64,000 nt of DNA. Source: an uncultured Chlamydiae bacterium (GTDB lineage Bacteria; Chlamydiota; Chlamydiia; Chlamydiales; JAJFMB01). Each line of letters opens with the position of its first letter. Positions within the stretch are counted from its first letter, which is position 1. The notes below the pieces were generated by a model. That model ran no database searches. It had not been told where the DNA came from and saw nothing but the letters and a program-made list of their open reading frames with translations. Below, one piece after another: positions 43,397 to 64,000 of this stretch. A program made the position numbers and the translations under genes. The stretch spans positions 672,001-736,000 of the forward strand of contig CAVOJR010000001.1 in NCBI GenBank assembly GCA_963696295.1, read 5' to 3'.

Positions 43397-45964
43397 ATGT
43401 CCTCACTCATTGAAATTCAAGCAGATAGAATTGTCGCTAAAACAAAGCACTATCTCATCACCACCATGGGACGCGTTTTGGAAGAGGCTAACCTCGACGA
43501 ACTTTACCGGGCCCTCTCCTACACCCTCCGGGAAGAAGTGATGATCAATTGGCTCGCTTCGGAACGCACCATCGCCAAACATAGCGTGCGCGTCCTCTAC
43601 TACCTCTCCATGGAGTACCTGCCCGGCCGGATCCTCAGCAACAACATCACCAACCTCCAGGCCAACGATATCATCCGCCTCATCTTGCAAAAACTCAACC
43701 GCACCTACGATGACATCGTCACGCGGGAGCGCGATCCGGGCCTCGGAAACGGCGGTCTTGGCCGCCTGGCCTCCTGCTTCCTCGACTCGCTAGCCACACA
43801 GCACTACCCCTCAAGGGGTTATGGCCTTCGCTACCAATACGGGATCTTTGAACAGCAACTCTGGAACGGACAGCAGATCGAAGCGCCCGATCCCTGGCTG
43901 GCCAACGAATACCCGTGGGAATTCAGACGGGACCTGCGCAAAGTTTTCGTCAAATACGGGGGGCATATCACTCCGAAAACCAATATCCATGGCGACGAAA
44001 TCTATCAATTGGATGGTTATGAACAGGTATGGGCTCTCCCCTTTGACATCCCGATCATCGGCTACAACCGGGAAAATACCTACACGGTCATCACGTTGCG
44101 CCTCTGGTCCACCAAAGAATCGCCGCGTAACTTCCTTTTGCAGCGCTACAACGCCGGCCGCCTCGATGAAGCCGCCGAAAACTCCACCCTGACCGACGTG
44201 CTCTATCCAAGCGATCACCACGAAACGGGCAAAAGAGTGCGGCTGAAGCAGGAATTCCTGTTAGTTTCGGCTTCGCTGCAAGATATCATCCGCCATTATC
44301 TGGCATCGCACCCTAATTTCCGCGATTTTGCCGATAAGGTGCGCATCCAAATCAACGACACCCATGCCACCCTGGTCATCCCCGAATTAATCCGCCAGCT
44401 GATCCAAACCTACGACCTCCCCTGGAATATGGCCCTCGAGATCACCCGGGAATGCACCGGCTACACCAATCACACCATCTTAAAAGAAGCTCTCGAGCAG
44501 TGGGATCACAATTTGATGTTCTATCTTTTGCCGCAGCAATTCCGCATCATCGAGCGGATCAACTACGGTTTTTGCGAAGAGATAAGGAAAAAATTTCCGC
44601 AGGACGAACCGCGCGTCCAAAGAATGTCTATCTTAAACGACGGCATGGTGCGCATGGCCAATCTGGCCATCTGCGGCTCCCATCGCATTAACGGCGTGGC
44701 AGCTTTACATACCGAAATTTTGAAAAATGAGGTTTTTAAAGACTTCTACGAAATGTTTTCCGACAGGTTCGTCAATATCACGAACGGCGTCACCCAGCGC
44801 AGGTGGCTTTTGCATTGCAATCCCGATTTGGCCGCTTTCATCTCACAAAGAATCGGGGACAGCTGGATCACCGATTTTATGCAAATCGAGCGCCTGGCTG
44901 AGTTTGCCAGCGATATCGATTCTCAAAGAGACTTCCTCGCCATCAAGCGAAAAAACAAACATCGCTTAATCAATAAGATTTTCAAGATCGAAAAAATGCG
45001 GGATGCAAGCGGCGAGTTCAAGGAGTCGTATCCCCTTGTGGATATCGACGCCCTCTTTGATGTGCAGATCAAGAGAATTCACGAATACAAAAGGCAGCTG
45101 ATGAATGCGCTGCACCTGATAATGCTTTATCAGGAGATCATCGAAGACCCCGAGTCCAAAAGAGTCAAACGCGCTGCTATTTTCGGCGGGAAAGCCGCTC
45201 CCGGATACGACGTGGCTAAAAATATCATTTTCCTCATCAACTGCATCGGCCGCCGCATCAATCGCGACCCAAAAACACAAGGGCTGCTTAAAGTTATTTT
45301 CATCGAAAACTACTGCGTCACAAGAGCCGAGCTGATTATTCCGTCCGCCGATCTTTCCGAGCAAATCTCGACAGCCGGCACTGAAGCCTCCGGTACAGGC
45401 AACATGAAGCTCACCATGAACGGCGCGCTCACCATCGGCACAAACGACGGCGCCAATATCGAAATGCGGGAAGAGGTGACGGACAAATGGTGGCCCTTCG
45501 CCTTTGGCTGTTCCGCTTCCGAAATAAAAAAAATGAGGGATGAGCAAACGTATCACCCCCAAAACATTTACAATGACAACCCGAAAATCAAAAAAGCCCT
45601 CGACACTCTCGTCAACCGAACCTTCGCCGAAAATGATTATGAGCATCAAATCTTTTCCAGCCTCTACCATATGATACTCGACGGCTACCCGGGCAGTCCG
45701 GCCGACCGCTACTTCATTTTGAAAGACCTGGAGAGCTATTACGACACCCAGCTGAAAGTGGAGCAGCTTTACCAGAAGCCCTTCCAGTGGGCCGAATACG
45801 CCCTGCACAATATCGCCGCCATGGGCAAGTTTTCCACTGATTACTCCATCCGCAACTACTGCGAGAAGATCTGGGGAATCAAGCCGCTGCCGCTAGACGA
45901 AGAAATCCTCAACCGCGTGCGCCATGACTACAGCGAGCACGACCAGTGCCGCATCTATTATTGA
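43397..45964 (+). CDS. glgP: Glycogen/alpha-glucan phosphorylase
   Basis: GLGNGGLGRLA, QINDTH, TNGVTQRRW, KRIHEYKRQ, EASGTGNMK (PLP lysine). Confidence 0.97.
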   Translation: MSSLIEIQADRIVAKTKHYLITTMGRVLEEANLDELYRALSYTLREEVMINWLASERTIAKHSVRVLYYLSMEYLPGRILSNNITNLQANDIIRLILQKLNRTYDDIVTRERDPGLGNGGLGRLASCFLDSLATQHYPSRGYGLRYQYGIFEQQLWNGQQIEAPDPWLANEYPWEFRRDLRKVFVKYGGHITPKTNIHGDEIYQLDGYEQVWALPFDIPIIGYNRENTYTVITLRLWSTKESPRNFLLQRYNAGRLDEAAENSTLTDVLYPSDHHETGKRVRLKQEFLLVSASLQDIIRHYLASHPNFRDFADKVRIQINDTHATLVIPELIRQLIQTYDLPWNMALEITRECTGYTNHTILKEALEQWDHNLMFYLLPQQFRIIERINYGFCEEIRKKFPQDEPRVQRMSILNDGMVRMANLAICGSHRINGVAALHTEILKNEVFKDFYEMFSDRFVNITNGVTQRRWLLHCNPDLAAFISQRIGDSWITDFMQIERLAEFASDIDSQRDFLAIKRKNKHRLINKIFKIEKMRDASGEFKESYPLVDIDALFDVQIKRIHEYKRQLMNALHLIMLYQEIIEDPESKRVKRAAIFGGKAAPGYDVAKNIIFLINCIGRRINRDPKTQGLLKVIFIENYCVTRAELIIPSADLSEQISTAGTEASGTGNMKLTMNGALTIGTNDGANIEMREEVTDKWWPFAFGCSASEIKKMRDEQTYHPQNIYNDNPKIKKALDTLVNRTFAENDYEHQIFSSLYHMILDGYPGSPADRYFILKDLESYYDTQLKVEQLYQKPFQWAEYALHNIAAMGKFSTDYSIRNYCEKIWGIKPLPLDEEILNRVRHDYSEHDQCRIYY

Positions 45965-46018: not shown

Positions 46019-46852
46019 ATGAAAAAGTTCTGGTTGCTATTCTTACTCTGCACCGCCTGCCTTCATTCTGAGGAAAAAACCGTATTTCTCACTTCTATCA
46101 TACGCGATCAAGCCCACGTGCTCCCCAGATATTTAAAAAATATCGAAAACCTCGATTACGACAAAAAGCTGATCACCGTCCATTTCTATACGTATAACAA
46201 CGATGACCGGACCTCCCAGCTTTTGCAGGATTGGGCCGGGCAAAACAAAAACCGCTATAGAGATATTGCGGTCGAGACGCTGCAATATTCTGACATTCCC
46301 CTGCTGCCCAACTACAAGAAAAAAGAGTGGATCTACGAGGAAAATAGCGTGGTGCAAGAGCTCATCAATAAAGGCCTGTCAAAGGGCAAGGAGAGCGATT
46401 ACTATTTCTTCCTCGCCCCCACTTCCCTGATTGCCCCCTTTACCCTGAAAGAACTCATCGCCAAAGACAAACCGATCATTGCCCCCCTCTTGGTCAGCAT
46501 ACCGGAATGCGATGATCACTTCGCCAACTTTTTCTACAAAACCACTGAGGACGGCTACTATGCCCACGACGATAATTACACCAAAATCCTCTACAGGTGG
46601 GATCCGGGCGTCTTCCAGGTGCCTTTAGTCTATAATGCCTATTTGATTAAGAGGGAATATCTGGATAAACTGAGCTTCGGCGAAGAGAGCTCTGATCTCT
46701 ATTTTGTGGCTTTTGCGCGCAATGCCAGGAAGAACGGGGTCGAACAGTACCTCACGAACGAAAAAAATTACGGCGTGCAAATTCATTTTACCTCTTCAGT
46801 CACAAGGGAGGAAGAGATCCGCAAACTCAAAAACCTTTTACTGCTGCCATGA
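46019..46852 (+). CDS. Secreted GT-A protein resembling the N-terminal domain of procollagen galactosyltransferase COLGALT1/CERCAM and the PLOD accessory domain
   Basis: Signal peptide; AHVLP..L..IE.LDY.K, NNDDRT..L..W, TLKELIA.DKPIIAPLL, NF....T.DGYY, G.F.VP.V...YLI, VAF...A...GV..Y..N...YG follow the COLGALT1 motif order; DxD is replaced by APT. Confidence 0.75.
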   Translation: MKKFWLLFLLCTACLHSEEKTVFLTSIIRDQAHVLPRYLKNIENLDYDKKLITVHFYTYNNDDRTSQLLQDWAGQNKNRYRDIAVETLQYSDIPLLPNYKKKEWIYEENSVVQELINKGLSKGKESDYYFFLAPTSLIAPFTLKELIAKDKPIIAPLLVSIPECDDHFANFFYKTTEDGYYAHDDNYTKILYRWDPGVFQVPLVYNAYLIKREYLDKLSFGEESSDLYFVAFARNARKNGVEQYLTNEKNYGVQIHFTSSVTREEEIRKLKNLLLLP

Positions 46853-47802
46853 AACTGCTCATCTCCCTTCTGCTCCTGATCTCTCCCCTCTATGCCCTGA
46901 AAATCAACATCATCAGCTGGACAAATGGAGTTGGCTTAGAACAGGATATCGACATCCTTTACAAGGAACTGACCAAACTGGGCCATCAGGTCGATTTTAT
47001 CCATTTTTACGATTTTGATCCGAAGCCCAAAGCCGACATCAATATCTTTGTGGAGCTCGTGGAAGAATTGCACTTTGAGTTGGCCTCCAAAAATTACCTG
47101 ATCCCAAATCCTGAGTGGTTCACAAAAGAGCCTTTAATCCCTAAATTTGATCTGATTTTGTGCAAAACAAAAGAAGCGATGCGCCTCTTTCAACCCTTAA
47201 ATCCTCATGTCGTCTATCTCGGATTCACTTCAAAGGACTGCTTTTATGAAAATATCCAAAAAGATTACCGCTCCCCCCTCCACCTGGCCGGCCACAGCAT
47301 CCAAAAAGGGACCGACGGTCTCCTCGCTCTTTGGAGAACTAATCCGAAGCTGCCTCTCCTGCACTTGCTTAAGCATCGGGAGCCCTTTTACCCGGGCATC
47401 GCTAACGTAGAGCAATTCACAGAATATCTCCCCCTTTCCGAGTTAAGATATTTGCAAAACCGAAACGCCCTCCACCTATGCCCGAGCGAAACCGAAGGGT
47501 TTGGCCATTACATCGTAGAGGCCTTGAGTACCGGAGCTGTCGTCGTCACGACCAATGCGCCGCCGATGAATGAATTTGTGAGCGATCCGAGATGCCTGGT
47601 AAATTACAATACTACCTGGCAGCAGAATTTAGCGACAAACTACTATTTCGATCCTGAAAGTTTGAGAGCTACTTTGACAAATTTGCTCAATTTACCTGAT
47701 GAAGAATTACAAAAGATCGGCCGGCAAAACCGCCAGAAATACCTTGAAATCGACCGGTCTTTCAAACAAAGAATCGCTGAAATATTTGGAGAAGCAAAAT
47801 GA
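46849..47802 (+). CDS. Secreted GT-B (GT4-like) glycosyltransferase
   Basis: Signal peptide; NGVGL, S.QKGT, HLCPSETEGFGHYIVEALSTGAVVVTTNAPPMNE (E-X7-E). Confidence 0.85.
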   Translation: MKLLISLLLLISPLYALKINIISWTNGVGLEQDIDILYKELTKLGHQVDFIHFYDFDPKPKADINIFVELVEELHFELASKNYLIPNPEWFTKEPLIPKFDLILCKTKEAMRLFQPLNPHVVYLGFTSKDCFYENIQKDYRSPLHLAGHSIQKGTDGLLALWRTNPKLPLLHLLKHREPFYPGIANVEQFTEYLPLSELRYLQNRNALHLCPSETEGFGHYIVEALSTGAVVVTTNAPPMNEFVSDPRCLVNYNTTWQQNLATNYYFDPESLRATLTNLLNLPDEELQKIGRQNRQKYLEIDRSFKQRIAEIFGEAK

Positions 47803-48965
47803 AACGCCTGATTACCTTTTTGTGCCTGATGTGCCCCCTGGCGCTGTTTGCCAACGTAAAAGACCCCCTGCTGGTGGTTTCCCTGATGATCAAGAATGAA
47901 GTGCATTCGATCGAAGACACCCTTGAGCCGCTCGTGAGCGGAGGGATTACAGCCTATTTGATATTCGATACCGGCTCTACCGACGGCACGCTGGAGGTCG
48001 TGGAAAAGTTTTTCAAAAAACATAAACAGGTTAAAGCCGTCGTCAAACAGGAACCCTTTGTCGATTTTTCCACTTCGCGAAACCGCGCTTTAGACCTCGC
48101 CAAAGAGTCATTTCCTAAAGCCGAATTTATTTTTATGCCCGACGCCGAGTGGATCTTGCATGATGTTCCCGGCCTGCTCGCGTTTTGCGAAAAAGAGAGG
48201 GACTCCAATCTACCCTCCTATATGATCAGGGTGCTCGGAGGATCGCTGGACTACTACTCCACCCGCCTGGTCCGGGCCAATGGTCCCGCTCATTATGTCG
48301 GCAAAGTGCATGAAGTGATCATCCCCGCCACAGCCGTTAAAGCTCCCGACACCGTCTATCTGGAGCAAAGGTGCTATGAGAAAGGGCTCGCCCAATCTAA
48401 AGAAAGATGGAAAAGGGACCGCACCATTTTAGAGGAGGCCTTTTTAGAAAATCCGACCGATGCGAGAACCCTCTTTTATCTCGCCCAGACCTGCAGCTGC
48501 CTTGAAGATTACCAGTCCGCCTACCAATATTATCTCATCCGCTCCAAATTGAAAGGATGGCCGGAAGAAGACTATATGACCCTCTACCGGTTGGCTGAAG
48601 TGGTTGAAGAGCTCGCTAAAACGAACCAGACCTATCTGCCTGAAATGATCTATTACTATATGGAGGCTTATAATATGCGTCCTACCCGCGCCGAGCCCCT
48701 GGTCAAAATCGCCGAACACTATTTAAGAAATGGGAAATACCCCTTGAGCTACCTTTACGCCGAGAAAGCCACTAAGATTGAGTACCCATCCGGCGACACC
48801 CTGTTTGTCGACAAGTACATGTATGATTTTACGCGCTACGATATTTTGAGCCAGTGCGCCTGGTATGTGGATCAAAAAGAGGTGGGCTATGAGGCCTTAA
48901 AGAAAGCGATAGCCTACGCTCCCGATGCCGAGTATCTGAAAGCCAATCTCAGCTTCTACGAATAG
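47799..48965 (+). CDS. Secreted GT2 glycosyltransferase with TPR repeats
   Basis: Signal peptide; MIKNE, DTGSTDGT, DFSTSRN, PDAEW, VGKVHE, R..FYLAQT and TPR helices (P.RAEP). Confidence 0.88.
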   Translation: MKRLITFLCLMCPLALFANVKDPLLVVSLMIKNEVHSIEDTLEPLVSGGITAYLIFDTGSTDGTLEVVEKFFKKHKQVKAVVKQEPFVDFSTSRNRALDLAKESFPKAEFIFMPDAEWILHDVPGLLAFCEKERDSNLPSYMIRVLGGSLDYYSTRLVRANGPAHYVGKVHEVIIPATAVKAPDTVYLEQRCYEKGLAQSKERWKRDRTILEEAFLENPTDARTLFYLAQTCSCLEDYQSAYQYYLIRSKLKGWPEEDYMTLYRLAEVVEELAKTNQTYLPEMIYYYMEAYNMRPTRAEPLVKIAEHYLRNGKYPLSYLYAEKATKIEYPSGDTLFVDKYMYDFTRYDILSQCAWYVDQKEVGYEALKKAIAYAPDAEYLKANLSFYE

Positions 48966-49709
48966 GTGCATCTAGCTGATCACAATTTTGGGCGGGACTC
49001 TCCCGCCTTGGTTCCTTCTGGTTTTGAGCCAGTGCGCCTGGTATGTGGATCAAAAAGAGGTGGGCCATGAGGCCTTAAAGAAAGCGATAGCCTACCCTTC
49101 CGATTATCTGAAAGCCAATCTCAGCTTCTACGAATAGGTGCATCTAGCTGATCACAATTTTGGGCGGGACTCTCCCGCCTTGGTTCCTTCTGGTTTTGAG
49201 CCAGTGCGCCTGGTATGTGGATCAAAAAGAGGTGGGCTATGAAGCCTTAAAGAAAGCGATAGCCTACCCTCCCGATTATCTGAAAGCCAATCTTAGCTTC
49301 TACGAATAGGTGCATCTAGCTAATCACAATTTTGGGCGGGACTCTCCCGCCTTGGTTCCTTCTGATTTTGAGCCAGTGCGCCTGGTATGTGGATCAAAAG
49401 AGGTGGGCCATGAGGCCTTAAAGAAAGCGATAGCCTACGCTCCCGATGCCGATTATCTCAAAGCCATCAGCTTCTACGAATAGGTGCATCTAGCTGATCA
49501 CAATTTTGAGAGGGACTCTCCCGCTTTGGTTCCTTCTGATTTTAAGCTAGTGGCCTGGTATGTGGATCAAAAAGAGATGGGCCGTGAGGCCTTAAAGAAA
49601 GCGATAGCCTACGCTCCCGATGCCGAGTATCTCAAAGCCATCAGCTTCTAAGAATAGGTGCATCTAGCTGACAATTTTGAGAGGGGCTTGCCCGCCTTGA
49701 TTCCTTCTG
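48844..49709 (+). repeat. Five-copy tandem array (170-178 bp) of the GT2-TPR gene 3' end plus hairpin
   Basis: Units start at 48844, 49022, 49194, 49366 and 49540. Each holds the last ~120 nt of the CDS; the hairpin GGCGGGA-CTC-TCCCGCC is intact in units 1-3 and degraded in 4-5. Confidence 0.95.
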
Positions 49710-49773
49710 TATTTCAAAGGTCTATACAAAATTGAGGGAAGGCGGGAATGCGAATTCAAAAGTTGACATCAGC
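49667..49773. repeat. Imperfect palindrome overlapping the distal end of the array
   Basis: GCTGA..CAATTTTGA..CCCGCCTT..TTCC pairs with GGAAGGCGGG..TCAAAAGTTG..TCAGC. Confidence 0.55.
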
Positions 49774-49778
49774 ATGCT

Positions 49779-50804
49779 TTAAGCAGGGTTTAGTAAGATG
49801 AATGTCAGTATAACAGTTTTACCTGTATTGTCCCCTTGCAGGTGAAGGTTTCTATAATTGGTAACCTGCAAACTGACTGTCCAACCTGACTCTAGCGAAA
49901 GTAAATAGTTACCTTTCATTACAGTCCCACCTCCAGTAGCATCATTTACGACAGTTGCCACGCCTGGAGAAATTAAACCAGAACCTCCCCCTACATTTAA
50001 TTGTATTTCCAAAAGACCATCTCCAGACCCCGTAAGCTGAGAACTGACCGCAAACATCACAAGATAAACTCCGGTTTGAGGTATAGTGACTGCATCAGAA
50101 ACAACAGGACCAGGCCAAGATGATCCAGAATAATTGCTGCCCCGAGTTGTCAATGGAATAGTTTTAGGGAGAGAGCCACTTAGATCACCTGTCGTAGTAG
50201 CATAATACGTTGCAAAGATATTACTAAACCCCCCAGTTACACCCGTACTTCCGGTTGACCCCGTCGGCCCGGTCGGACCTGTGCTGGAGTAGCTTATTCC
50301 ATTAGTGCCTGTAGGGCCGGTTGGACCTGTTGCCCCAGCTGTAGGTGATGACGGCCCGGTTGGCCCGGTTGACCCGGAGAGCCCGCTTGGCCCGGTGGGA
50401 CCGGTTGGCCCGGAGAGTCCGCTTGGACCGGTAAGTCCTGTGAGTCCTGATACGCCCGTTGGCCCTGCAGGTCCAGTTGATCCGGTTGGTCCCGTCACCC
50501 CTGCAATGCCCGTTGCCCCGGTAGTGCCGGTAGGCCCCGGACTGCCTGGACAACCCTGGATGCCCTGCGGGCCCGGTTGACCATTCACACCGTTCATCGC
50601 ATCGCGCCCTGCTGGTCCTATAGGGCCGGTTTCACCGGTCAGTCCCTTGAGACCACGAGGTCCGGTGGGTCCTGTCGGACCCATAAGCAGGATATTTGGG
50701 CAGCTGTAATTACAATTCTCTTTCTGATTTGTCCTATTAGGCACCCCTTGAGAGTATGCCAAATTCGCTCCAACGACCAAAAGGGCGAAAAAAAACAATC
50801 TCAT
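49779..50804 (-). CDS. Secreted collagen-like protein (BclA-like; GPT-rich helix, C1q/BclA-C-like C-terminal domain) #1
   Basis: Signal [18 protein letters not shown]; long Gly-X-Y run containing [18 protein letters not shown]. Confidence 0.9.
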
Positions 50805-50838
50805 GAAAACACCCAAAGTAAACCAATAAGTTAAACCA

Positions 50839-50872
50839 TAGATTTTGAATCTAAATCCAAATTTAATCAAGA
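50839..50872 (-). promoter_or_regulatory. Conserved promoter/operator of collagen gene #1 (also at ~52047-52080 and ~53261-53293)
   Basis: On the - strand, TTGATT-17 bp-CA(A/G)AAT, with the palindrome TAGATTCnGAATCTA over the -10 region, precedes three paralogs. Confidence 0.6.
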
Positions 50873-50944
50873 AAAAAATCAACACCGTGGAGTACTAGTG
50901 TCTAACACCATAAATCCGTTTATTAAATTTGAGTGAATGTTGTC

Positions 50945-50988
50945 ACAGATTGCAGTAGCGTATCATTTTACGCTACTGCGAGCTGTGG
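50945..50988. terminator. Intergenic hairpin between collagen genes #2 and #1
   Basis: CACAG.TTGCAGTAGCGTA-loop-TACGCTACTGCGA.CTGTG. Confidence 0.6.
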
Positions 50989-51009
50989 AAAAAGGCGCCA
51001 AAATTGATC

Positions 51010-52014
51010 TCAAGGGTTTATCAGGATAAATGTCAAACTGGCAGTGATATTAGCATTGTCTCCGGCTAACACAAGGCCGTATGTAGACGCATTCTGCAAA
51101 CCTACGGCACTGGATGGGGTAAGGCTAAGAAAATAATAACCAGCTATTATAGTGGCCCCACTCGTTGTCGCATTAACGACAGATGTAAAACCAGGAGTAT
51201 ACGGTGCACCACCAATAATTAACTGAATATCCATAATTCCAGTATTAGAGCCTGAATTGTTCTGGGCATTGACCGTAAACATTATAAGATACTCTCCAGC
51301 TACGGGAACTGTGACAACGTAGTTTGATGCGAGAGAGGCACTAGAAAATCCGCCGCTAGCCGCACCGTAGATATTTAGCAAAGGGATGTTTGCGGTGGTA
51401 ACCAGTCCCGTCGCATTACCGTAAAACTGACCGTAAACAGGTGTCGGCTCTCCCATTTCTCCCATTGACCCGCCCGGCCCGGTTGGCCCGGTCGCTCCCG
51501 GGGTTCCGTTGGTTCCGCTCGCGCCTGTAGGTCCGGTTGGGCCTGTTGGTCCAGAAGATCCTGTCGGCCCGGTTGGTCCGGCTCCGGTAAAAGAAAACCC
51601 TGTCGGTCCGGTTGGCCCTGTTGCCCCGGAAAGTCCTGTCGGGCCTGTCGGTCCTGATAGCCCGGAAGGGCCTGTAGGCCCTGTTGACCCTGTGGCCCCC
51701 GCCGGTCCTGTCGTCCCTGAAACACCAGTCGGTCCACTAGGGCCTGAGGGTCCTGTAATCCCTTGACAACCCGCCGGCCCCTGGGGGCCTTGCTGGCCAT
51801 TCAACCCGTTTTGACCATCGCGTCCCGCAGGTCCTGGGGGGCCTTGTTCCCCCCTTAATCCGCGAGGCCCGCGATGTCCTCTTAACCCCGCCGGACCGGG
51901 CAGAATAATGGGAGCGTCGGAGTATCTGATATCACAATTTCCGCTATCAGGCACCCCTTGAGAGTGAGCCAAATTCGCTCCAATGACAAGAAGAGCGAAA
52001 AAAAACAATCTCAT
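51010..52014 (-). CDS. Secreted collagen-like protein #2
   Basis: Same signal-peptide family; GPT/GPS-rich helix with [18 protein letters not shown]. Confidence 0.9.
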
Positions 52015-52135
52015 GATAACACCCAAAGTAAACGGCTAGTTAAACCATAGATTCTGAATCTCATTAAATATTTAATCAAGAAAAAAATGAACATTGGGTC
52101 CCGCAATTTTGATACTTCGAACTGGCGGGTCCCTC

Positions 52136-53119
52136 TCAGCTAGGTATTAATAAGAGAAATGACAGACTGACAGTAAAATTGGTACCGTCTCCAGCTAAAT
52201 AAAGGCCGTTACCAGTGCTATTCTGCAAATATATATTTTGGCCACCAGATGGAATAACTATAAAATAATTACCAACTATCACAGTGGCGCCGCTCCCAGT
52301 ATCAGAGACGTAAGATGTAGAACCAATTTGAGCAGCACCGCCAACGAATAATGTAATGTCCATAACTCCAAGGTTAGTTCCTGAATTGTTCTGAGCGCTG
52401 ACTGAAAATATCACCAGATAATATCCGGGCGTGCCAACCGTTACTTTGTTACCTGCCACACTAAATGACCCTGCCATATCCCCGTAAAATCCGCTCAAGG
52501 GTATGTTCGTATTTGAAGTAATGAAACCCGTTTTATTACTGGATGCCGAAGCATAAGCCACGGCATATGCCCCCGAGAGCCCTGTTGGGCCGGTTGGCCC
52601 GGTTGGCCCCGTAAACCCCGAGGTTCCGTTTGTTCCGCTAGGCCCGGTAGGTCCGGTGGAGCCTGTTGCCCCGGAAAGTCCTGTCGGCCCGGTCGGCCCG
52701 GTTGTCCCCGAGAGTCCCGTTGGCCCCGTTGCCCCGGATAACCCCGAAGGCCCGGTCGGCCCGGTTACGCCGGAAAGACCTGTCGGACCCGTCGGCCCGG
52801 TCGGCGCGGTTGGCCCGGTAGGGCCGGTTGCCCCAGAAGGTCCTGTCGGCCCCTGAGGGCCTGTGATTCCAGGACATCCTTGGCACCCTTTTGGGCCGGT
52901 TGGGCCTGGCTGTCCGTTAAATCCGCTTTGGCCATTGCGTCCGGAAACTCCGGCCGGCCCTTGATCCCCCTGGATTCCCATAGGCCCGGTAGGTCCTCTG
53001 GGCCCTCTCGGACCGCGTATGACTTTGGGTTTAGCGGCAGAAATGTCAAAATCAGACACCCCTTGAGAGTGGGCCAAATTCGCTCCAAGGACCAAAAGTG
53101 CGAAAAAAAACATTCTCAT
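52136..53119 (-). CDS. Secreted collagen-like protein #3
   Basis: Same signal-peptide family; [17 protein letters not shown] repeats; [15 protein letters not shown]. Confidence 0.9.
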
Positions 53120-53152
53120 GCTAACACCCTAAGTAATCAGCTCAGTTAAACC

Positions 53153-53251
53153 GGCCATTTTCATAATTTCATCAACGGGGGCTGGCCGCGAGGCGCGATT
53201 GAACACATCTCGCGCCTCTCCTTCAGCCCGCGAATGATGAAATTAATGGCC
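53153..53251. mobile_element. 99-bp palindromic MITE-like insertion with 8-bp target-site duplication
   Basis: Termini GGCCATT/AATGGCC; internal arms pair; flanked by GTTAAACC at 53145-53152 and 53252-53259; the paralogous leaders have a single GTTAAACC. Confidence 0.85.
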
Positions 53252-53288
53252 GTTAAACCTTAGATTCTGAATCTAATTAAATATTTAA

Positions 53289-55271
53289 TCAAGAAAAATG
53301 GGAGAGAAGGCTTTCTTTTATCTCCTCAATAGGAGTAATGGCCAGATAGGCTTCCTTATCTTCAATCCCGACGGTGATGATCACATTTTTCTCTTCATGG
53401 TCCAAAGTCATCCCTGAGCCGTATTCAATACCGATGGCTTTGAAATAAAAGGGCCGGGAGAGTTTTGTGATTTGAAAGTTTTTATCCAGATAGACAAAAC
53501 GGTGAAGGTAATAGCGTCTGCCGGGATAGGCCACTTCATGGACTAATGTCAGATACCCTTCATCGAAGGGAATAGGACCGGCTGAGCCGCGAAAAGAAGA
53601 GCAGTCAAAGGGAGAGGTCGTTTCCACGATTTTTTCACAATGCCCTGAAAGAAGATCAGGTTTATAAATTGTGAAGGGTTCGTGAGAGTATATGATGTGG
53701 ATCGCATCGTTCAGCACAAAAGGGAGCCAATTTTTTTCGCACCGGTTCTTTACAGGGCCTGCTAGGGGAATCAGCTCTTTAATAGCCCCTCCGGGCTCTA
53801 TCTTTCCAAGCCCAATTTGAATGATGTTTGAGGGGTTGGCGTCGTATAAACAGCAGGTCAGCCAATTTGCCCCGCGAAAGGAAAAGAGACGGCAATCTTC
53901 GATGCCTGTAGTATACCCGCAAGGAAAGCGCGGATAGGAAGCCTCCTCAATCAGCTCCTCTTGGGAGAGTCTTTTAAAGGCCTTGTCGGTTTTGATCAGG
54001 AAATTACGCGTGTCAATTTTGGGATTATTGGGGTCGCGCGACCAATAATGTTTGGCTTCTTCTTGTCCAAAATTGACGGTGCGGCAGATGATGTCGTAGC
54101 CTGTTTCCGTTTTTTGAATCGAGGGGTTTAGGGGGTTGTAATTTTCTGTAGCGTTGATCTTTGGAGGGATGATGTCGACAGGGATATAAGTGGCTTTCAG
54201 GGGCCGGACATAAAAAAGGGCATTATTCAAGGCGTTATTTTTTATATCCTTTGGAATATCCTTATTCACCAATAAGCGGTTGATTGCTTCAAACCCCAAG
54301 TTTTTATGCGGCGTATAGAAAGCCGCAATCGAAAGTTCTTCATCGAGAAGATAGTTCGCTTTCCCCTGCATGGCGTAGTGAGTGCATAGATTATTATCGC
54401 CATTAAGTCTGTAGTAGCGGGCAAGCCGGTAAAACGGTTCGGCCCGCTCAGGGTTTAGTTCCATCGCTTTAAGGTATTCCCTGACCGCTTTTTCCCCCTC
54501 ATGCTTCTCTTCAAAATATTGGCCCAGCATGAGGCGCGAATGAAAGAGACCGTCCCCTTTTTCTTCACATTCACACCTTTTTTGGTACCATTTCGCGGCT
54601 AAATCGGAGACACCCAAGGATTTATAGGTATCAGCAAGACACACCATGCAGGCTAAATTGCGCGGTTCTTTCTCAAGAGCGGTTAAAAGAGCGCCCAGTT
54701 TTTTCTCCTTTTCCCCTTCCCCGTCTTCGACTGAAAGATAGGAAAGGTCATCGAGCCGGGAATGGTTGGGGCAAGCCCAATAATCAAAGAGCGCCCCCCT
54801 ATTTTCACAAGGAAGAGCTGCTTTGAGAAGAAATAGTTTTTTCGGAAAGCAATCGCGCGCTAGAAAGTAACCATCGGCCATCAAACTGCCTTTGTCAAAA
54901 GAGGGGGATTGCCTGACAACCATATCCGCATCTAAAAAAAGGAAATAGATGCCCTCCAGGGACTCTCCCCTCTTTTTCAGCCATTTGCGGGCGGCGTTTG
55001 CCGCGGCTGTGCGGCTTTCATTCCTGTTCCGGCATTTTTGGTGATGGATTATTCCCGGGATCTTTTCCTTTTCGATAAAGGCTTCGATAATCGCCACAGT
55101 ATTATCCGTCGAGCCTGTGTCGATAATTGAGATATAATCGACCAGCCCTTTGACGCTCTCCAGGCATTTTTCAATCGCATGAGCCTCATTGTTGACACTC
55201 ATGGATAGACAAATTTTTCCAAAAAGAAAAAAAGGCGTCAGACAAAAGAGCAGAAAATAATAGGGCATCAT
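53289..55271 (-). CDS. Secreted GT2 + TPR + five-bladed beta-propeller (GH130/GT91-like) protein
   Basis: Signal peptide; VNNE, DTGSTDNT, LDADM; TPR (PERAEP); C-terminal NPSI, IEDCRLF, EKNWLPF, FRGSAG, YLHRF, IEYGSG, VGIED. Confidence 0.82.
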   Translation of the reverse strand: MMPYYFLLFCLTPFFLFGKICLSMSVNNEAHAIEKCLESVKGLVDYISIIDTGSTDNTVAIIEAFIEKEKIPGIIHHQKCRNRNESRTAAANAARKWLKKRGESLEGIYFLFLDADMVVRQSPSFDKGSLMADGYFLARDCFPKKLFLLKAALPCENRGALFDYWACPNHSRLDDLSYLSVEDGEGEKEKKLGALLTALEKEPRNLACMVCLADTYKSLGVSDLAAKWYQKRCECEEKGDGLFHSRLMLGQYFEEKHEGEKAVREYLKAMELNPERAEPFYRLARYYRLNGDNNLCTHYAMQGKANYLLDEELSIAAFYTPHKNLGFEAINRLLVNKDIPKDIKNNALNNALFYVRPLKATYIPVDIIPPKINATENYNPLNPSIQKTETGYDIICRTVNFGQEEAKHYWSRDPNNPKIDTRNFLIKTDKAFKRLSQEELIEEASYPRFPCGYTTGIEDCRLFSFRGANWLTCCLYDANPSNIIQIGLGKIEPGGAIKELIPLAGPVKNRCEKNWLPFVLNDAIHIIYSHEPFTIYKPDLLSGHCEKIVETTSPFDCSSFRGSAGPIPFDEGYLTLVHEVAYPGRRYYLHRFVYLDKNFQITKLSRPFYFKAIGIEYGSGMTLDHEEKNVIITVGIEDKEAYLAITPIEEIKESLLSHFS

Positions 55272-55301
55272 GAGCTCCCAAAAGCGCTTATTCTACCGGA
55301 A

Positions 55302-56087
55302 TTACCCTCTTTTGACAATCAGCAAAGTGTAGGAGCTCGTTGTTTGACCCGCATTTAAAAGAGGAGTTGCTGTGAGCGGATCTCCAACACTGGTCACGCC
55401 TATCAAAGCAGTGGCCGCCTGGAGGGAAAAGATCCCTGTACCCATGACGTAGCTGAAAGTATCTTCTGCACTGGTAATAATTCCGGTCTGCGTCATGGCT
55501 TGCGCCGCGCCCCCATTGAGGGTGAGGCCAATAGCTAAATTGGACGCTACCTGATTAGACGCGTTCAGGATGAAAGTGATTTCATAAATGCCGTCCATGG
55601 GAACTTGCACAAAATTGCCATTTGGTGAGCTCCAATTAGCGCCGAATGATTCAACAGGACCATTAAGCGAAAGAACCCCGGAAGCCGCGCTAATCTGACC
55701 TGCGTAGGAATAGCGCGCCGCTACTGCCAGGCCACTGCCAAAACCGGTAGGTCCCGTGATTCCAGTCGGACCTGTCGGGCCCATGGGACCCATACAACCC
55801 CTTGGACCCTGGCAGCCCTGCGGTCCGGGAACCCCCGGAAACCCATAAGGACCCTGGCAGCCTTGAACTCCTTGCGGGCCGGGCTGCCCGTTCAAACCGT
55901 TCAGACCGTTACGCCCGGCGGGACCGGCCGGACCCTGATCCCCTCTTGGCCCCTCCGGGCCGGTGGGCCCGGGAGGACCCGGTGGCCCTTGGCACAGCGG
56001 CTCGCAATCGTCATACCTGGAAGAGGCATTCGCATGGAAGGTAAATAAACCGGCCAACACAATAATCAGTAAACGGCGCATCATCAT
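55302..56087 (-). CDS. Secreted collagen-like protein #4
   Basis: Signal peptide ending ANA; CEPLC then Gly-X-Y with three GC triplets; [13 protein letters not shown]. Confidence 0.9.
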
Positions 56088-56196
56088 ACCTTAAGTTCAG
56101 ACTAGATTCTTTGTATAAAGTACTTTTTTTTTTGCAACCAAATACGGACAAGCAAGTTTCAGTTGAAAAATATATTATAAATCTAAAGAATGAAAA

Positions 56197-57024
56197 ATGG
56201 AACAAACATCTCACTTGGGTGAAGCTGTGTCTCGTATTTTTATCGTAATAAGCCTCTTTTTATTTGCTTCTACAAGCTATGCAGATTATAAATCTGATTG
56301 CAGACCCTTGAGAGGACCTCCTGGACCCACCGGCCCCATAGGACCTGCTGGACCCAAAGGATTGAAAGGCAAGCAGGGTCCCTCCGGAGTGGATGGCCTG
56401 GACGGACAGACCGGTCCGACAGGCCCCACCGGTCCGTCCGGTTGTGCCGGATGCCCGGGCCCTCGCGGCAGTAAAGGGAATAGAGGAAGCGCAGGGCCGC
56501 AAGGCTCTATAGGACCCACCGGCATGCAAGGGCCGATGGGTCCCCAAGGGCCGACGGGACCTTTCGTACCGACGGCTTCAATGCCCTTTGTCCGATTTGC
56601 CAATTTTACGACTCAGCAAATCGCTTCCGGGGCCATTATTCCTTTAGGAAACGCGAACCCCGTCGACCGAAGCAGCGGATGGGCCGTCCAATCAGGGGGC
56701 CGTGTGACCGTTCCCAAGGATGGTGTTTACCTCGTTACCTGGATAGTCAACATTGATTTGAGCTACACCTCTAATGAAGGGGGTTATGACGCCATCATCG
56801 GCCTGGAAAACACGACCACGACCAATACCGGGACATTTGTGAATGGCAGTAATCAAACCGCCCAAGTGATTGGAGTATCCTTACAAAACCTGTTTGCGGG
56901 AATGACTGTCGGGCTTGTGAACTTTTCCAATTATCCCATTCAGATTATAGCCCAGCCATCATCATCGGGATCAGCAGGAGCTTCCTATACACTGAAAGTC
57001 GTTAATATTGGCACAAGCTCTTAG
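56197..57024 (+). CDS. Secreted collagen-like protein #5 (divergent orientation; start may be GTG at 56227)
   Basis: Signal peptide ending SYA; Gly-X-Y with [20 protein letters not shown]. Confidence 0.9.
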
Positions 57025-57049
57025 GGGCTAATTTCGTCCAATCGCCCTC

Positions 57050-57802
57050 TTAGGAAATTTTTATGAGCTTAAGAGTGTAGGCGCTGATATTGCCGTTTTG
57101 ACTATCGACAGCTAAAGAATTTGCGGAGACGTTGTAAAGCCCGATCATATCCCCTTGATTGAGCGATATAATCGCTGTTCCGACGCCATAAGGATAAATT
57201 CCCATGCGCGTATTCGGCAAAGAGGCGCCATTTTTTCTTAGCTCAACTACGACCGGGCCCGTGTCATTGAGGTTGAGTATCCAGGTTATTTCGTAGTTGC
57301 CGCTGACCGGAATTTTGATAATTCCATTAGCGTCCGCCAGCCAGCCAGGGCTGCCGGCCGGATTGGTGCTGCCAAGGGAAATTTGCCCCCCTGACAAAGC
57401 CAAGCCGTCTGAAAAATTGGTATAAACAGCAAATTGGGTTAATGTGGTCGGCGCAGTTCCTGTGGGTCCCGACAATCCGGTAGGGCCAGTAGGTCCTGTG
57501 GGGCCGCTCGGACCTCTCGGGCCATCTGGACCCCTGTCGCCGGGACAGCCAGCCAGTCCCATAGGTCCCGTGCATCCCGGCCCCCCTTGCGGCCCTTGTA
57601 CGCCCTGTACACCATGGCGGCCGTTTTGGCCGGCCTGTCCAATATCGCCGATATCCCCTTTAGGGCCTCTGGGACCGGCGGGGCCTTGAGGACCCTGAGG
57701 GCCCGGTAAAATTCGCTGATCGCATTTAAAATCATTGGCGTGAGCGGAAAAAAAATTCAGGCAGAGAGCCGAAAGGAGAAAGTAGCGTGGAAAATGCTTC
57801 AT
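57050..57802 (-). CDS. Secreted collagen-like protein #6
   Basis: Signal peptide ending AHA; Gly-X-Y with GCT and GCP; IKIPVSGNYEITW. Confidence 0.9.
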   Translation of the reverse strand: MKHFPRYFLLSALCLNFFSAHANDFKCDQRILPGPQGPQGPAGPRGPKGDIGDIGQAGQNGRHGVQGVQGPQGGPGCTGPMGLAGCPGDRGPDGPRGPSGPTGPTGPTGLSGPTGTAPTTLTQFAVYTNFSDGLALSGGQISLGSTNPAGSPGWLADANGIIKIPVSGNYEITWILNLNDTGPVVVELRKNGASLPNTRMGIYPYGVGTAIISLNQGDMIGLYNVSANSLAVDSQNGNISAYTLKLIKIS

Positions 57803-57814
57803 AAATTACCTAAT

Positions 57815-58843
57815 TTAAAACAGGCCGTCATTTTCAACAATAGAATCTTCAATAATGTAGTCATCATGGCAAAAATGTTGTAACCCCTTTTTATCATTAA
57901 AGTTCCAGTCCCAGCAGGTTTGTTTGCGCAAGACAATGAGGTTGTTTCTCCGTTGCGGCAGAGGCGGGCACCATGATTCTTTGCAGCCGCTGCGCTTTCT
58001 GGCGCATCCGAAGGTAGGGAAGGGGATATTGATAGAAATTCTACCGATGACTTTAGTGTGGAAGTAACGATCGTAGGTGCCTTCCACTTCGACGCGAACG
58101 TTTGTGCTCAGGTCAGCGACCAAGCGGGCCCTGCCGCCGGCGAACCATTGCGATTGCGCCGTATTGTCATAAAAGTAGGCGCCAAGCCCGACATTGATGC
58201 GGGATTTGCACCAGAAGAAAAGCGTTTTGTCCAATTCGAGATCGAAGCCGCCGAAAGAGCAGATATTTTCTCTGCAGCAAGCAAAAAATCCCCCATCGTA
58301 ACAGAAAGTTTCGGAGCAGCAGTGTTTTTTCTTTTGGAAGGGGTAGTAGCCGTTGATATAGAAGTTGAAGCAAGGGTGGAAGAACTCGAAGCCGCCGCTG
58401 ATTTGATGAAAGTCCAGGTGGCAGGGCCCCCTTCTGTAGTCATAATATAAGTTAGCGCCCCCGACGATGCAATAGCAGTCGAAGGAGCGGACGCCGATGC
58501 CGACATTCACAGCGTTTTTCCAGTTGGCGAAGTAGTGCCATTTGGCGTCCAGATAGGTTTCGTAGCAAGTGTAGAACTGCCTTGCGTTCAGTTCAAAGGT
58601 GACATAATCCTTATTAGTCGCGATCGTTTCGCCGAAATTGCCCGTGAACTTGAAGTTCAGATCGCCCCCATTGGGCCTGTCGCAGGGGGGGAAGTAGAAT
58701 TCGCAGGGCATGAGGCAGCAGGCCATGCCATTATAGTTTTCGGTCTTGCAAGGATTGTAGCAGTCTCCTCCGCCGGGTGTATTATAATAGGTGACACCCG
58801 ACACACAGCCTACCCAAAGAAATCCCAACAACCACTTTTTCAT
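57815..58843 (-). CDS. Cys-rich stand-alone inverse-autotransporter (intimin/invasin-type) beta-barrel protein
   Basis: Signal peptide; NVGIGVR, GANLYYDYR, FHQISGGFE, NGYYP, GGRAR, EGTYD..F, and P.QRRNNLI linker; no passenger domain. Confidence 0.8.
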   Translation of the reverse strand: MKKWLLGFLWVGCVSGVTYYNTPGGGDCYNPCKTENYNGMACCLMPCEFYFPPCDRPNGGDLNFKFTGNFGETIATNKDYVTFELNARQFYTCYETYLDAKWHYFANWKNAVNVGIGVRSFDCYCIVGGANLYYDYRRGPCHLDFHQISGGFEFFHPCFNFYINGYYPFQKKKHCCSETFCYDGGFFACCRENICSFGGFDLELDKTLFFWCKSRINVGLGAYFYDNTAQSQWFAGGRARLVADLSTNVRVEVEGTYDRYFHTKVIGRISINIPFPTFGCARKRSGCKESWCPPLPQRRNNLIVLRKQTCWDWNFNDKKGLQHFCHDDYIIEDSIVENDGLF

Positions 58844-58894
58844 ATCATCCTCAAAGTTAAAAACCGCGCGCACGGTCGCGTGCGCGCCCTCGTC

Positions 58895-59812
58895 CTACCA
58901 ACAGCATCCACACGGATTCTCCGCAATCTTGACAAAGGTCAGGGTAACGGATGCACCGGGTAACACAGCTGACCCATTTGCAGGAGTGAGAGTAATAGGA
59001 GTAGTCATCCCGGACAAATTAACCAGTGATACTGTTTGTCCTTTATTCAAGGGCTCAATAGCAAAGCCTACGATATTTGCTGTCGGAGTAGTTGAACCAG
59101 AAGGAGTAATGACTCCTGAAGTATCTGACATGGAGGCGCTGCCATTAATAGACAAGCCAACCACAATGGTTCCCCCAGAATAATTCGCATTGACAACCCA
59201 CTGAATAAGGTACACTCCGCTGCAAGGAATCGTCACAGTTCCATTATTGATAGACCATCCATATGGAAAATTAGAGTATACGTTAAGAGGACCAATGATT
59301 GTTAAGGGTGGTGTTACTGTAATAGAAGCAAAACTCCCGAACTTGGCCCAGGCCGTAAACTCATCGCAACAATTGTTATTACAACAATCATTGCAACAGT
59401 TATTTCGGTTGTTTCTGCAGCAGCCGTTATTATTGTAACCATTGTTGCAGCATCCATTATTATTCCTGCCGCATCCATTGTTACAGCAATTGTTGTTGCA
59501 GCAATCATTATTATTGCAACAACCATTACAATTTCCGCAAGCCGTACCAGGTGTGCCGCCAGGCCCCTGCATACCATTCATCCCATCGCGGCCGGGAGGA
59601 CCCATTGGACCTTGACATCCCGGAGGGCCTTGAGGACCTGGAGGACCTTGCGGGCCTGGAGGACCGCAACAGCTTTTGCAGCCAAAGGAAACATTATCCA
59701 GCTTGAATATAGACCTGTCTTTTTGGACGATAGTATCTTCTTCTGATGCCTGAGCATAGCTGCAAAAAAGCGATGCCACAGCTATCAGTAAACTTAGGAG
59801 AATTTTTTTCAT
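58895..59812 (-). CDS. Secreted collagen-like protein #7 with short helix and Cys/Asn-rich segment
   Basis: Signal peptide ending AQA; CKSCC-(GPP/GPQ)[15 protein letters not shown]...; [15 protein letters not shown]. Confidence 0.88.
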
Positions 59813-63000: not shown

Positions 63001-64000
63001 CACTTGCATCGCCACCTAAAAAAAAGGTCTTTATCAATGAAGGCTGAACCATATTCATCGAGATCCAGCTTGGAGCCGCTGCACCGCTGGGCTGCTTTAT
63101 CGAGAGATCGAGGTTGGCGTTGGGATTGGAAAGTTCAAAGTACTGGGACATGTCGATGTTTTCAGTCAGCTGCACGCCGGGGGTTGCGGTCAGGTCGGGG
63201 AGGGGCGTGATAATGGTGATCGGGTCGGTGCGGCGATCGAGCTGCGTCCTTGCCTGCTCGACCTTCTTCACAGTGGGAGTGGCTTTTGCAGGAGTGAAAG
63301 ACGGTATGGAGAGCGCTTCGGAGCGTGGCAGGAGGGTGATCAGACTGGCAATGAGCGCGACTTTGCGATCATGGACGGTTAGCATGTTGATGGCAAAAAC
63401 GGTCGCGGCACTGAGGAGAGTATGCTGAGTGTTTTGGGGAACTTCTGGGGCTGGCGCGCTGCCGGGCAAACGGAGGCGCTCCTCGTAACTTTCTTCTTTC
63501 ACCAGCTTCCAGTTATCGCCATCTTTGGTAAAGGTGGCTTTTTGTACCAGTGTTTTGCCATCCAAGGGCTTCGTCTGGGTCAGTATGAGCTCTTCGGCAG
63601 TCTGTTCTGCCTTGTATTCGATGCAATCGGCGGGGCTTGTGCATTCGGTGCGGATGTGAGTCTCTTTGTCGGCTGAAAACTGGTGGATCTCCTCATAAGT
63701 GGTTCCGCCATAATTGAAAGTCTGGGTGTAACCGTCTTGCGTGAACGTCACTCTTTCAAGCTGGGAAAGCAGCTCGGGCTGCCCTTGATCGGCCCTCGAC
63801 TCGGCGATGTCGATCACTTTTTGGCAAAGGGAGGGATTTTTTGCCATCTCGGCAAGTTCCTCAGGGTCCAGACGCCCGTCTGCTGCCATCTGATCGGCTC
63901 TCTCATTTTCATTTTGGGCCACTTGATGCGGAAGGCGAACATGATCGTGAATCCAGGGGGCGAGCGCATAGCCTGAGAAATAGAGATAGCCAAGGAAAAG
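60014..64000 (-). CDS. Large membrane-anchored protein with LVIVD repeats and putative-Ig (He_PIG/dystroglycan-type) repeats; 5' end beyond the window
   Basis: GLKIVDISNP repeats; F.D.D.D.L.Y and LP.WL.F....RT.SGTP repeats; TM near the C-terminus; the frame is open from 63922 to 64000. Confidence 0.88.
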   Translation of the reverse strand, partial: LFLGYLYFSGYALAPWIHDHVRLPHQVAQNENERADQMAADGRLDPEELAEMAKNPSLCQKVIDIAESRADQGQPELLSQLERVTFTQDGYTQTFNYGGTTYEEIHQFSADKETHIRTECTSPADCIEYKAEQTAEELILTQTKPLDGKTLVQKATFTKDGDNWKLVKEESYEERLRLPGSAPAPEVPQNTQHTLLSAATVFAINMLTVHDRKVALIASLITLLPRSEALSIPSFTPAKATPTVKKVEQARTQLDRRTDPITIITPLPDLTATPGVQLTENIDMSQYFELSNPNANLDLSIKQPSGAAAPSWISMNMVQPSLIKTFFLGGDASDMYIRGNYAFVALDNGLKIVDISNPGNPVVVGFWEVSVESNALRRFIYIRDNYAFYGKVGSGAVNPLVVLDISNPSNISLVKTVDGFGSICSMIASGNYLYITDGNGGGGTFQILDISNPTNPIQKSILSWEYCLVCIGVIGKYAYFATSDSGFRVVDISNPVNPVIVTSVLDSSYFVSAVGKDNYVFIAYTNNAVKIYDITQIATPVVVGTVYLGVSPSKLTLEGNYIYASCTGGGVKVINIENILNSQLVISINTFGKARDTFLSGNIAFIADGAAGLTYYSVDERSLSGKPALTDRGLLLLDVIGSDGTNAVVEPTAIHVGEINTLPIANQQVYVGNSTLFTLSAGTFEYPGAVFTYTATLAGGLPLPAFISFDPPTRTFIFAPRSGDQNTYRIEVKGNDGYGGSKTIPFDLSVPDRFPVLEQPFANQTAYTGEPFVYIFDSNTFSDLDKDILSYSAKLAGSNVLPGWLGFDSALRKFYGTPFGKGVYPIEVTANDGFGGTVSDTFTITVPNSAPIVLNPPGTQLASVGIFFSYAFNSNTFFDVDNDVLTYSTSQLPAFLSFNPATRTFSGTPQVQDIGTYSITLSAEDPDKAKASTTFSLTVLSASNNNPPVLIKEIPDVSKTAGVPFSFTFDAGTFEDPENQPLRYEASLEGGGALPEGLYFDSDTRTLSGLLDTPQSLRVTIRALDPSGAFALDTFTLNIVDGTQYPPIVLNPLPDAIATVGESFSKPVPDDTFKDRNGDALEITVTQSGGRPLPPWLKWNNETKSFFGKPGPFDTGTYVDWEYTIEVWASDSTGSTKSAFKLTVQGESFWETFLKVGITLGSIAVSGIGYWKSRALVWNYFRKEKYRKETERALIGQPFELAFDFDESQVKVMRAYQKGHTLSQERLLPDGLVYEDNKLQGKPSGRDKGRFTIQVEDHDGFMLREFDLIIKKDLNEDDPPIEDDYLKKAKAMFTSLSRHIPRIKQADEVEGGRSSTMMKGLLNDDEKK

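Follow-up and report, generated by a model that had tools for sequence, protein, structure and literature searches.

Layout of the locus

We analysed a stretch of 64,000 nucleotides (hereafter the window) from the genome of an uncultured Chlamydiae bacterium (3.43 Mb, 97% complete). Twelve open reading frames (ORFs) fill positions 46019-59812, the first and last of them starting with ATG at these two positions, and encode seven collagen-like proteins, four proteins with glycosyltransferase (GT) folds and one inverse-autotransporter barrel lacking a passenger. Three overlapping GT-fold genes on the plus strand are followed by a 172-bp repeat, three collagens, a long gene joining a GT2 domain to tetratricopeptide repeats (GT2-TPR), two divergent collagens and, with gaps of 51 and 12 bp between its genes, a collagen-barrel-collagen run. 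The closest named relatives of these genes are Chlamydiae/Parachlamydiaceae records. In what follows, genes are designated by their first position in the window.

46019..46852, plus strand: COLGALT-like gene with a signal-peptide-like N-terminus (PDB sequence matches; APT in place of DxD)
46849..47802, plus strand: GT4 (GT-B) glycosyltransferase with a signal-peptide-like N-terminus (PF00534, E 4e-9)
47799..48965, plus strand: GT2-TPR of SgtA-like architecture, DAE/HE subfamily (PF00535 and weak TPR)
48843..49714, no strand: five tandem 172-bp copies, a non-coding duplication (TRF period 172, 5.0 copies, 92%; translations)
49779..50804, minus strand: collagen, 47 triplets, 32 Thr/Ser at Y, BclA-type head (PF01391, triplet count, head alignment)
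51010..52014, minus strand: collagen, 49 triplets, 27 Thr/Ser at Y, BclA-type head (PF01391, triplet count, head alignment)
52136..53119, minus strand: collagen, 49 triplets, 34 Thr/Ser at Y, BclA-type head (PF01391, triplet count, head alignment)
53289..55271, minus strand: GT2-TPR with a C-terminal domain of ~300 amino acids (aa), DAD kept, no HE pair (PF00535 E 2e-10, TPR)
55302..56087, minus strand: collagen, 28 triplets, Cys just ahead of the helix, BclA-type head (BclA_C E 2e-4, below cut-off)
56227..57024, plus strand: collagen, 28 triplets, the sole plus-strand collagen of the locus (no flanking inverted repeats)
57050..57802, minus strand: collagen, 28 triplets, head modelled as BclA/C1q-like, start 12 bp past the barrel gene (model, Foldseek)
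57815..58843, minus strand: passenger-less inverse-autotransporter barrel, Cys-rich (PF11924 E 2e-5, model, Foldseek)
58895..59812, minus strand: short collagen of 14 triplets, Y positions free of Thr/Ser, CC motif ahead of the helix, Cys/Asn-rich segment, BclA-type head; opens the collagen-barrel-collagen run (BclA_C E 2e-5, below cut-off)

The original prediction, made from the DNA letters, had described this set of genes with a signal peptide on every ORF. All the genes were found: PF01391 is above the cut-off in all seven collagens, Pfam matches support the GTs and PF11924 the barrel. A hydrophobic N-terminal stretch is present in 12/12 ORFs, the best 10-residue Kyte-Doolittle mean ranging from 2.1 to 3.3; here and below, "signal-peptide-like" and "export-tagged" refer to Kyte-Doolittle hydropathy windows of the N-terminus. 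Seven of the ten collagen-like ORFs of the genome lie in this locus, so their clustering is not due to chance.

Collagens and the passenger-less barrel

The collagens carry 14-49 Gly-X-Y triplets each (47, 49, 49, 28, 28, 28 and 14 in locus order). With a rise of 0.286 nm per collagen residue, their predicted rods are 12-42 nm long. The abundance of Gly-Pro-Thr and Gly-Pro-Ser triplets claimed earlier holds for three of the proteins, where Thr or Ser occupies position Y in 32, 27 and 34 triplets, but not for the three collagens of 28 triplets (5, 8 and 7) nor for the shortest (0 of 14). Cys-bearing triplets, also mentioned in that description, are present but sparse (12/243 over the seven collagens). 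Cysteines are frequent outside the helix. A Cys lies at most 10 residues ahead of it in 36 of the 48 phylum collagens with an intact N-terminus, and is retained in a barrel-adjacent mini-collagen with three to four triplets. The 58895 collagen has 28 Cys in all and a separate Cys/Asn-rich segment. This low-complexity segment (window 59340-59540, between helix and head) is a candidate cross-linking block like Cys-rich coat proteins. The genome also has an OmcB-like gene with 35 Cys (profile match below the cut-off).

The heads of the locus collagens align with each other, in agreement with the shared C-terminal domain noted originally. Pfam BclA_C matches four of the seven, all below the cut-off (E 2e-5 to 6e-4). 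We modelled the head of the 57050 collagen from a 19-row alignment (predicted local distance difference test, pLDDT, 85). Foldseek matched the model to F-BclA of B. thuringiensis (9h38, E 4e-8, template modelling (TM) score 0.84) and BclA (1wck, TM 0.74), with further matches to ExsF/BxpB and then C1q proteins. On the strength of this model, the heads are of BclA/C1q-like type. The locus collagens thus resemble Bacillus BclA, F-BclA and L-BclA in joining a collagen stalk to a C1q/TNF-like head (TM 0.74-0.84). They differ in that there is no spore or exosporium, a Sec-like signal replaces the exosporium leader (7/7) and BclA_C stays below the cut-off. In Bacillus, docking of BclA-type collagens relies on an N-terminal peptide, which in L-BclA contains a CC motif, as summarised in PMC12357932.

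The 57815 gene product matches PF11924 (IAT_beta) above the cut-off (E 2e-5). Its model (pLDDT 78) has invasin (4e1t, E 7e-9) and intimin (4e1s, 1.5e-8) as top Foldseek folds, and the Atlas also supports an invasin/intimin-type barrel; a sequence search against the PDB gave no match. The protein ends ~25 residues past the conserved RN-xx-I...C-W-x-WN motif, with no passenger. It therefore shares the barrel fold of type Ve invasin and intimin, and its phylum paralogues of 650-880 aa do carry a passenger, unlike the locus barrel; moreover, the short forms, and not the long ones, neighbour collagens. Homologues occur in 126/301 phylum genomes. To compare neighbourhoods we took up to 20 kb around the top-ranked matches in 20 genomes with passenger-less barrels (open frame of at most 450 aa) and 20 with passenger-bearing ones (at least 650 aa), leaving aside matches between 450 and 650 aa as well as any second copy in a genome, and called a collagen at 8 or more triplets. 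A collagen lies within 10 kb of 11/20 passenger-less and 0/20 passenger-bearing barrels. The Fisher value of 1.5e-4 for this contrast is overstated, because related genomes are not independent. In eight of the 11 cases the collagen is adjacent to the barrel on the same strand. One more passenger-less barrel is adjoined by a mini-collagen with BclA_C above the cut-off, and three of the four further top short barrels outside the sample have an adjacent collagen. GT2-TPR genes lie near 5/20 passenger-less versus 0/20 passenger-bearing barrels. The 20 short barrels end 0-36 residues past the profile end, at the conserved motif where long forms continue into the passenger. The latter belong to a large family in environmental chlamydiae (L249-L268; 650-880 aa, up to seven listed per genome), whose passengers mostly have no Pfam match; one has a beta-helix.

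Across 301 phylum genomes, 106 have a collagen and 127 a GT2-TPR homologue. Both occur in 91 genomes, the GT only in 36, the collagen only in 15 and neither in 159, in a sample where kin are not independent. Each is found in 0/30 genomes of the small-genome family. Around the 40 top GT2-TPR matches (one 2-kb contig skipped), a collagen was found in 16 regions, a barrel in 11 and both in six. The module recurs across environmental chlamydiae: collagen, GT2-TPR and barrel co-occur and neighbour each other across the phylum, as the original prediction had expected of a real system. A second locus of the same genome pairs an RHS-collagen fusion of 1792 aa with a GT2-TPR gene directly after it. The genome has two paralogous giant collagens (C1:1019338-1024017 and C1:2564994-2570372, the latter being L216:1995-7370), each with a signal-like N-terminus, a ~530-aa RHS-repeat region, ~300-340 Gly-X-Thr-rich triplets and a C-terminal head; such a fusion of an RHS core to a collagen is unusual. 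The one at C1:2564994-2570372 is followed by a GT2-TPR-GT2 gene.

Glycosyltransferases and nucleotide-sugar enzymes

The four GT-fold genes have four architectures: Anp1/COLGALT-like, GT4, GT2-TPR and GT2-TPR with a 300-aa C-terminal domain. The 47799 GT2-TPR has DAE at the DxD site, as do 116/119 of its top homologues, and HE is found in 116/119. Its named homologues, at 46-49% identity, are mostly Babeliales/Dependentiae; sampled chlamydiae reach at most 35%. Among known proteins it has only weak matches, to GmaR and a SunS model. The C. difficile protein SgtA, according to the description in PMC7157674, has a GT-A domain and TPRs, is encoded upstream of bclA3 and O-GlcNAcylates Thr of collagen peptides. 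The likeness of the 47799 protein to SgtA, already pointed out in the original prediction, lies in the domain layout and the collagen neighbour, taking SgtA as described in print: in both cases a GT-A and TPR gene stands beside a Gly-Pro-Thr collagen (PMC7157674). The chlamydial locus differs from SgtA and BclA3 in its diderm intracellular host, the signal-like N-termini on collagens and GTs, the added barrel and COLGALT-like gene, and its seven short collagens. By this analogy, the 47799 GT2-TPR is a candidate initiating Thr O-glycosyltransferase.

The 46019 protein has PDB sequence matches over 230 aa to COLGALT1 (9u7j, E 1.7e-16), LH3 (6teu, 3e-10) and mimivirus R699 (2.5e-6). The homology corresponds to the N-terminal (GT1) domain of human COLGALT1 and to the accessory domain of LH3 (PLOD3), and was overlooked in the original prediction. 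In the published structure of COLGALT1, the GT1 domain binds UDP-Gal and a metal and is structural, catalysis taking place in the second domain, and the BLAST search given there returned vertebrate, invertebrate and giant-virus matches (PMC12003778). Unlike COLGALT1 and LH3, the 46019 protein is a stand-alone domain with no DxD and no linked GT25 or PLOD-GT; relatives elsewhere have the DxD and fusions to GT25 or PLOD-GT. To judge from its motifs, it is probably non-catalytic. A quick-mode tree, not used for the direction of transfer, puts the copy from the window on a long branch amid the chlamydial rows.

The COLGALT-like family is present in 26/300 phylum genomes. Its domain is fused there to GT2-TPR in two, to PLOD-GT in two and often to methyltransferases. 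Among 66 COLGALT-like loci in GTDB, the flanks contain GT2-TPR in 31 and collagen in 25 (a few of these collagen calls are short). Loci of the free-living proteobacteria Mesorhizobium and Bradyrhizobium encode GT2-TPR, COLGALT-like domain and GT25 in one protein, i.e. the full COLGALT layout, adjoined by collagens of up to ~1900 aa; unlike the chlamydial copies, these fused enzymes lack a signal peptide. The two enzymes are thus tied together, because GT2-TPR and COLGALT-like domains (with or without PLOD-GT) are fused in two phylum genomes and in rhizobia. The rhizobial fusion loci are L173:6722-12403, L209:6722-12406 (with a DUF4347 N-terminus) and L175:3652-6447. PLOD-GT (PF25342) occurs in chlamydial genomes (L065:1-3393, L070:94-2808, L243:12746-15106 and L167:3352-8688), fused to GT2-TPR and/or the COLGALT-like domain and, in L167, as seven in tandem. 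No PLOD-GT was found in the genome of the window, in a search whose control was silent. In viral contigs, 117 stretches encode the COLGALT-like domain, with a collagen nearby in 17/80 loci.

The 46849 GT4 has four paralogues elsewhere in the genome. The C-terminal domain of the 53289 protein has no PDB and no Pfam match. Its Atlas look-alikes are mostly unnamed, one set having PF04041 on 32% of its members; with this label and its motifs, we presume the domain to be GH130-like, as a lead only. Stand-alone paralogues of it, with mostly viral look-alikes in the Atlas, lie at C1:2001319-2002554 and 1368041-1369255. Of the four GT-fold genes, two (46019 and 53289) look degenerate, lacking the conserved catalytic motifs.

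We then considered the compartment in which these enzymes may act. Ahead of the catalytic domain there is a hydrophobic stretch in 67/69 chlamydial proteins (a few counted twice), 2/2 of Dependentiae and 23/34 unclassified ones. It is found in 1/10 GT proteins of named free-living genera, and in that one via an upstream start. By eye, most viral copies of the COLGALT-like domain begin at the domain itself; a crude count of 20/79 with a hydrophobic stretch includes the first strand. Nucleotide-sugar enzymes, which the original prediction did not mention, can also be tagged: 3/13 examined epimerase-family proteins (13 of 23 matches) and 0/2 nucleotidyltransferases, against a genome baseline, by a stricter rule, of 345/2071 hydrophobic N-termini. 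The three are GalE, a 4,6-dehydratase and an epimerase-reductase, and they include a UDP-rhamnose pair of plant/giant-virus type (4qqr, E 7e-112; 7jid, 7e-67). These tagged enzymes duplicate untagged cytoplasmic RmlA/D/B and GalE. The epimerase-reductase occurs in 11/301 genomes and is export-tagged in 10/10 close relatives. The pair lies at L213:2517-4508 (C1:1280016-1282010) and the tagged GalE at L214:791-1867. RmlA (C1:1203776-1204639) is the only NTP-transferase of note passing; no GalU was above the cut-off in the genome, and GlgC was not found either. In an unclassified genome, a GDP-mannose 4,6-dehydratase with a signal-peptide-like N-terminus (L211:8693-9784) stands beside COLGALT-like and GT2-TPR genes. 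As reported in PMC4829429, GlgA of C. trachomatis works in the inclusion lumen on UDP-glucose from the host, which is a precedent for a chlamydial GT acting on a host nucleotide sugar outside the bacterial cytoplasm. It differs from the present case in using type III secretion and making glycogen; here Sec-type tags are predicted, as are protein acceptors and sugar-converting enzymes.

Interpretation and alternatives

We propose that the locus belongs to a recurring environmental-chlamydia module making surface collagen fibrils that are exported by Sec, acquire O-linked glycans on Thr outside the cytoplasm and are displayed with the aid of the barrel, to which we give a probability of roughly 0.6. 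We infer all its biochemical steps from the folds, motifs and neighbourhoods described above. The collagens very probably exit by Sec and trimerise from the BclA/C1q-like head into rods of ~12-42 nm. The analogy with SgtA and the gene neighbourhood make it likely that GT2-TPR would add the first sugar to Thr/Ser of Gly-Pro-Thr, with GT4 and other exported GTs extending it; the COLGALT-like protein and the second GT2-TPR would be binding or scaffold partners more than catalysts. The acceptor is likely Thr, not hydroxylysine. Because enzymes and substrates are all export-tagged, we lean towards glycosylation outside the cytoplasm, in the periplasm or inclusion lumen, with nucleotide sugars probably coming from the host and being converted by the tagged UDP-rhamnose and UDP-galactose enzymes. 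The chances are about even that the barrel acts in trans on behalf of the collagens, its most likely role being to dock their Cys-bearing N-termini at the outer membrane; the collagens may cross this membrane by type II secretion, of which the genome has a gspF gene. The product would be a glycosylated nap that serves adhesion, clumping or shielding, and a stage-specific elementary-body coat is possible: the data fit a protective coat and adhesive or clumping fibrils alike. A more elaborate version can be offered only tentatively and strikes us as doubtful. It would be a Golgi-like extracytoplasmic pathway turning host UDP-glucose into UDP-rhamnose and UDP-galactose, with SgtA-like and COLGALT/PLOD-like enzymes glycosylating folded trimers. 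A split, "two-partner" inverse autotransporter, its passenger replaced by collagens docking via N-terminal Cys, would then display an exosporium-like nap on the infectious stage.

Several observations weigh against the proposed module. Export tags are found on GTs genome-wide (8/11 GT4, 4/10 GT2 and 3/4 FkbM). They are thus no peculiarity of the locus, contrary to what its first description implied, and because of this the GTs may serve other glycans. The signal-like N-termini, judged by hydropathy, could be uncleaved anchors. No nucleotide-sugar transporter was above the cut-off, one EamA-type match falling below it, and the two UDPGP-family genes of the genome mean that it may make its own UDP-sugars. 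The 46019 protein has APT at the DxD site, where 16/19 aligned relatives have DCD/DVD, and the 53289 GT2-TPR, which keeps DAD, lacks the HE pair found in 45/45 relatives. No collagen lies within ~10 kb in 24/40 GT2-TPR regions, and 36 genomes have GT2-TPR but no detected collagen. With these regions, the GT4 paralogues and the two GT-fold genes without catalytic motifs, the word "dedicated", used of the GTs in the original prediction, is too strong, and its interpretation as a whole is partly supported. As for the barrel, 9/20 passenger-less forms have no collagen by the triplet test and only 5/20 have GT2-TPR nearby. Both giant collagens lack a nearby barrel gene, the genome having a single barrel, and a weak search found no barrel-collagen fusion among two longer homologues.

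These points feed three other explanations. The collagens might be glycosylated in the cytoplasm before export, the GT N-termini being anchors that keep the enzymes on the cytoplasmic side of the inner membrane, close to the Sec translocon. This would dispense with nucleotide sugars, NAD(P)H and S-adenosylmethionine outside the cytoplasm, the genome has a cytoplasmic dTDP-rhamnose pathway and GalE, the same order is deduced for free-living relatives, and the N-termini were judged by hydropathy rather than by cleavage or topology prediction. However, these N-termini are built like cleavable signals, short and with a basic-hydrophobic-small-residue order, which would put the enzymes outside, and tagged and untagged duplicates of sugar enzymes fit two compartments best; we regard cytoplasmic glycosylation as unlikely. 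It also seems improbable that surface genes have simply accumulated here as a loose island, in which collagens and barrel form an adhesin unit and the GTs build another glycan (a capsule, a lipopolysaccharide-like polymer or an inclusion-lumen glycan). The pairing of GT2-TPR with collagen in several chlamydial families, at the second locus of the genome and in unrelated phyla, together with the SgtA precedent, speaks against such an island, even if three GT genes run against the collagens, one GT2-TPR is nearer Dependentiae (46-49%) than sampled chlamydiae (at most 35%), no collagen is found at 24/40 GT2-TPR and 41/66 COLGALT-like loci, and the genome has other large clusters of tagged GTs. 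Finally, collagens and GTs could be secreted into the inclusion or the host cell to form a soluble matrix or to modify the host, with the barrel in an unrelated role. The Sec signals, the type II gspF gene and the precedent of chlamydial enzymes active in the inclusion lumen would allow this, but collagens adjoin passenger-less barrels (11/20) and not passenger-bearing ones (0/20), and Bacillus BclA-type collagens are described as tethered by N-terminal peptides (PMC12357932), leaving secretion of a soluble matrix with little probability.

Each part of the proposed module has a known relative; its combination in a diderm intracellular bacterium, with export tags and a barrel link, appears to be new. 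We found no published description of the combination, the export tags or the barrel link in a search that excluded supplements and most subscription journals, and annotation tables may list the genes. If the proposal is true, about one third of the sampled chlamydial genomes (106/301) make a spore-type glycoprotein surface, undescribed for the phylum, which may govern how these bacteria survive in soil or water and how protists take them up. A function in trans would be assigned to a passenger-less type Ve barrel, nucleotide-sugar-dependent protein glycosylation would occur outside the bacterial cytoplasm, and bacterial relatives would join the COLGALT/PLOD domain family. In the more elaborate version given above, the bacterial fusions of GT2-TPR, COLGALT-like domain and GT25 would also bear on the origin of animal collagen glycosylation. 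The enzymes of the locus are small and easily assayed on synthetic peptides.

Other features of the locus were also recorded. The unit of the 172-bp repeat, in the 813-bp gap after the 47799 gene, spans the final ~40 codons of the GT2-TPR gene together with the stop codon and some DNA beyond it. The copies at 48843-49714 are decaying, each with the GT2-TPR 3' end and a stop codon. Promoter and terminator scans of the locus gave signals at chance level. Among listed sequencing runs, the genome makes up small shares of DNA runs, and no RNA run containing it is listed. An invertible cassette for the plus-strand collagen (56227-57024) was ruled out, there being no flanking inverted repeats. On one side, a glycogen phosphorylase gene (window 43397-45964) adjoins the locus. 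On the other, directly upstream and on the same strand, window 60014-64000 (continuing to C1:736645) encodes a protein of 1543 aa that combines LVIVD repeats with five He_PIG Ig domains and has a transmembrane segment at the C-terminus.

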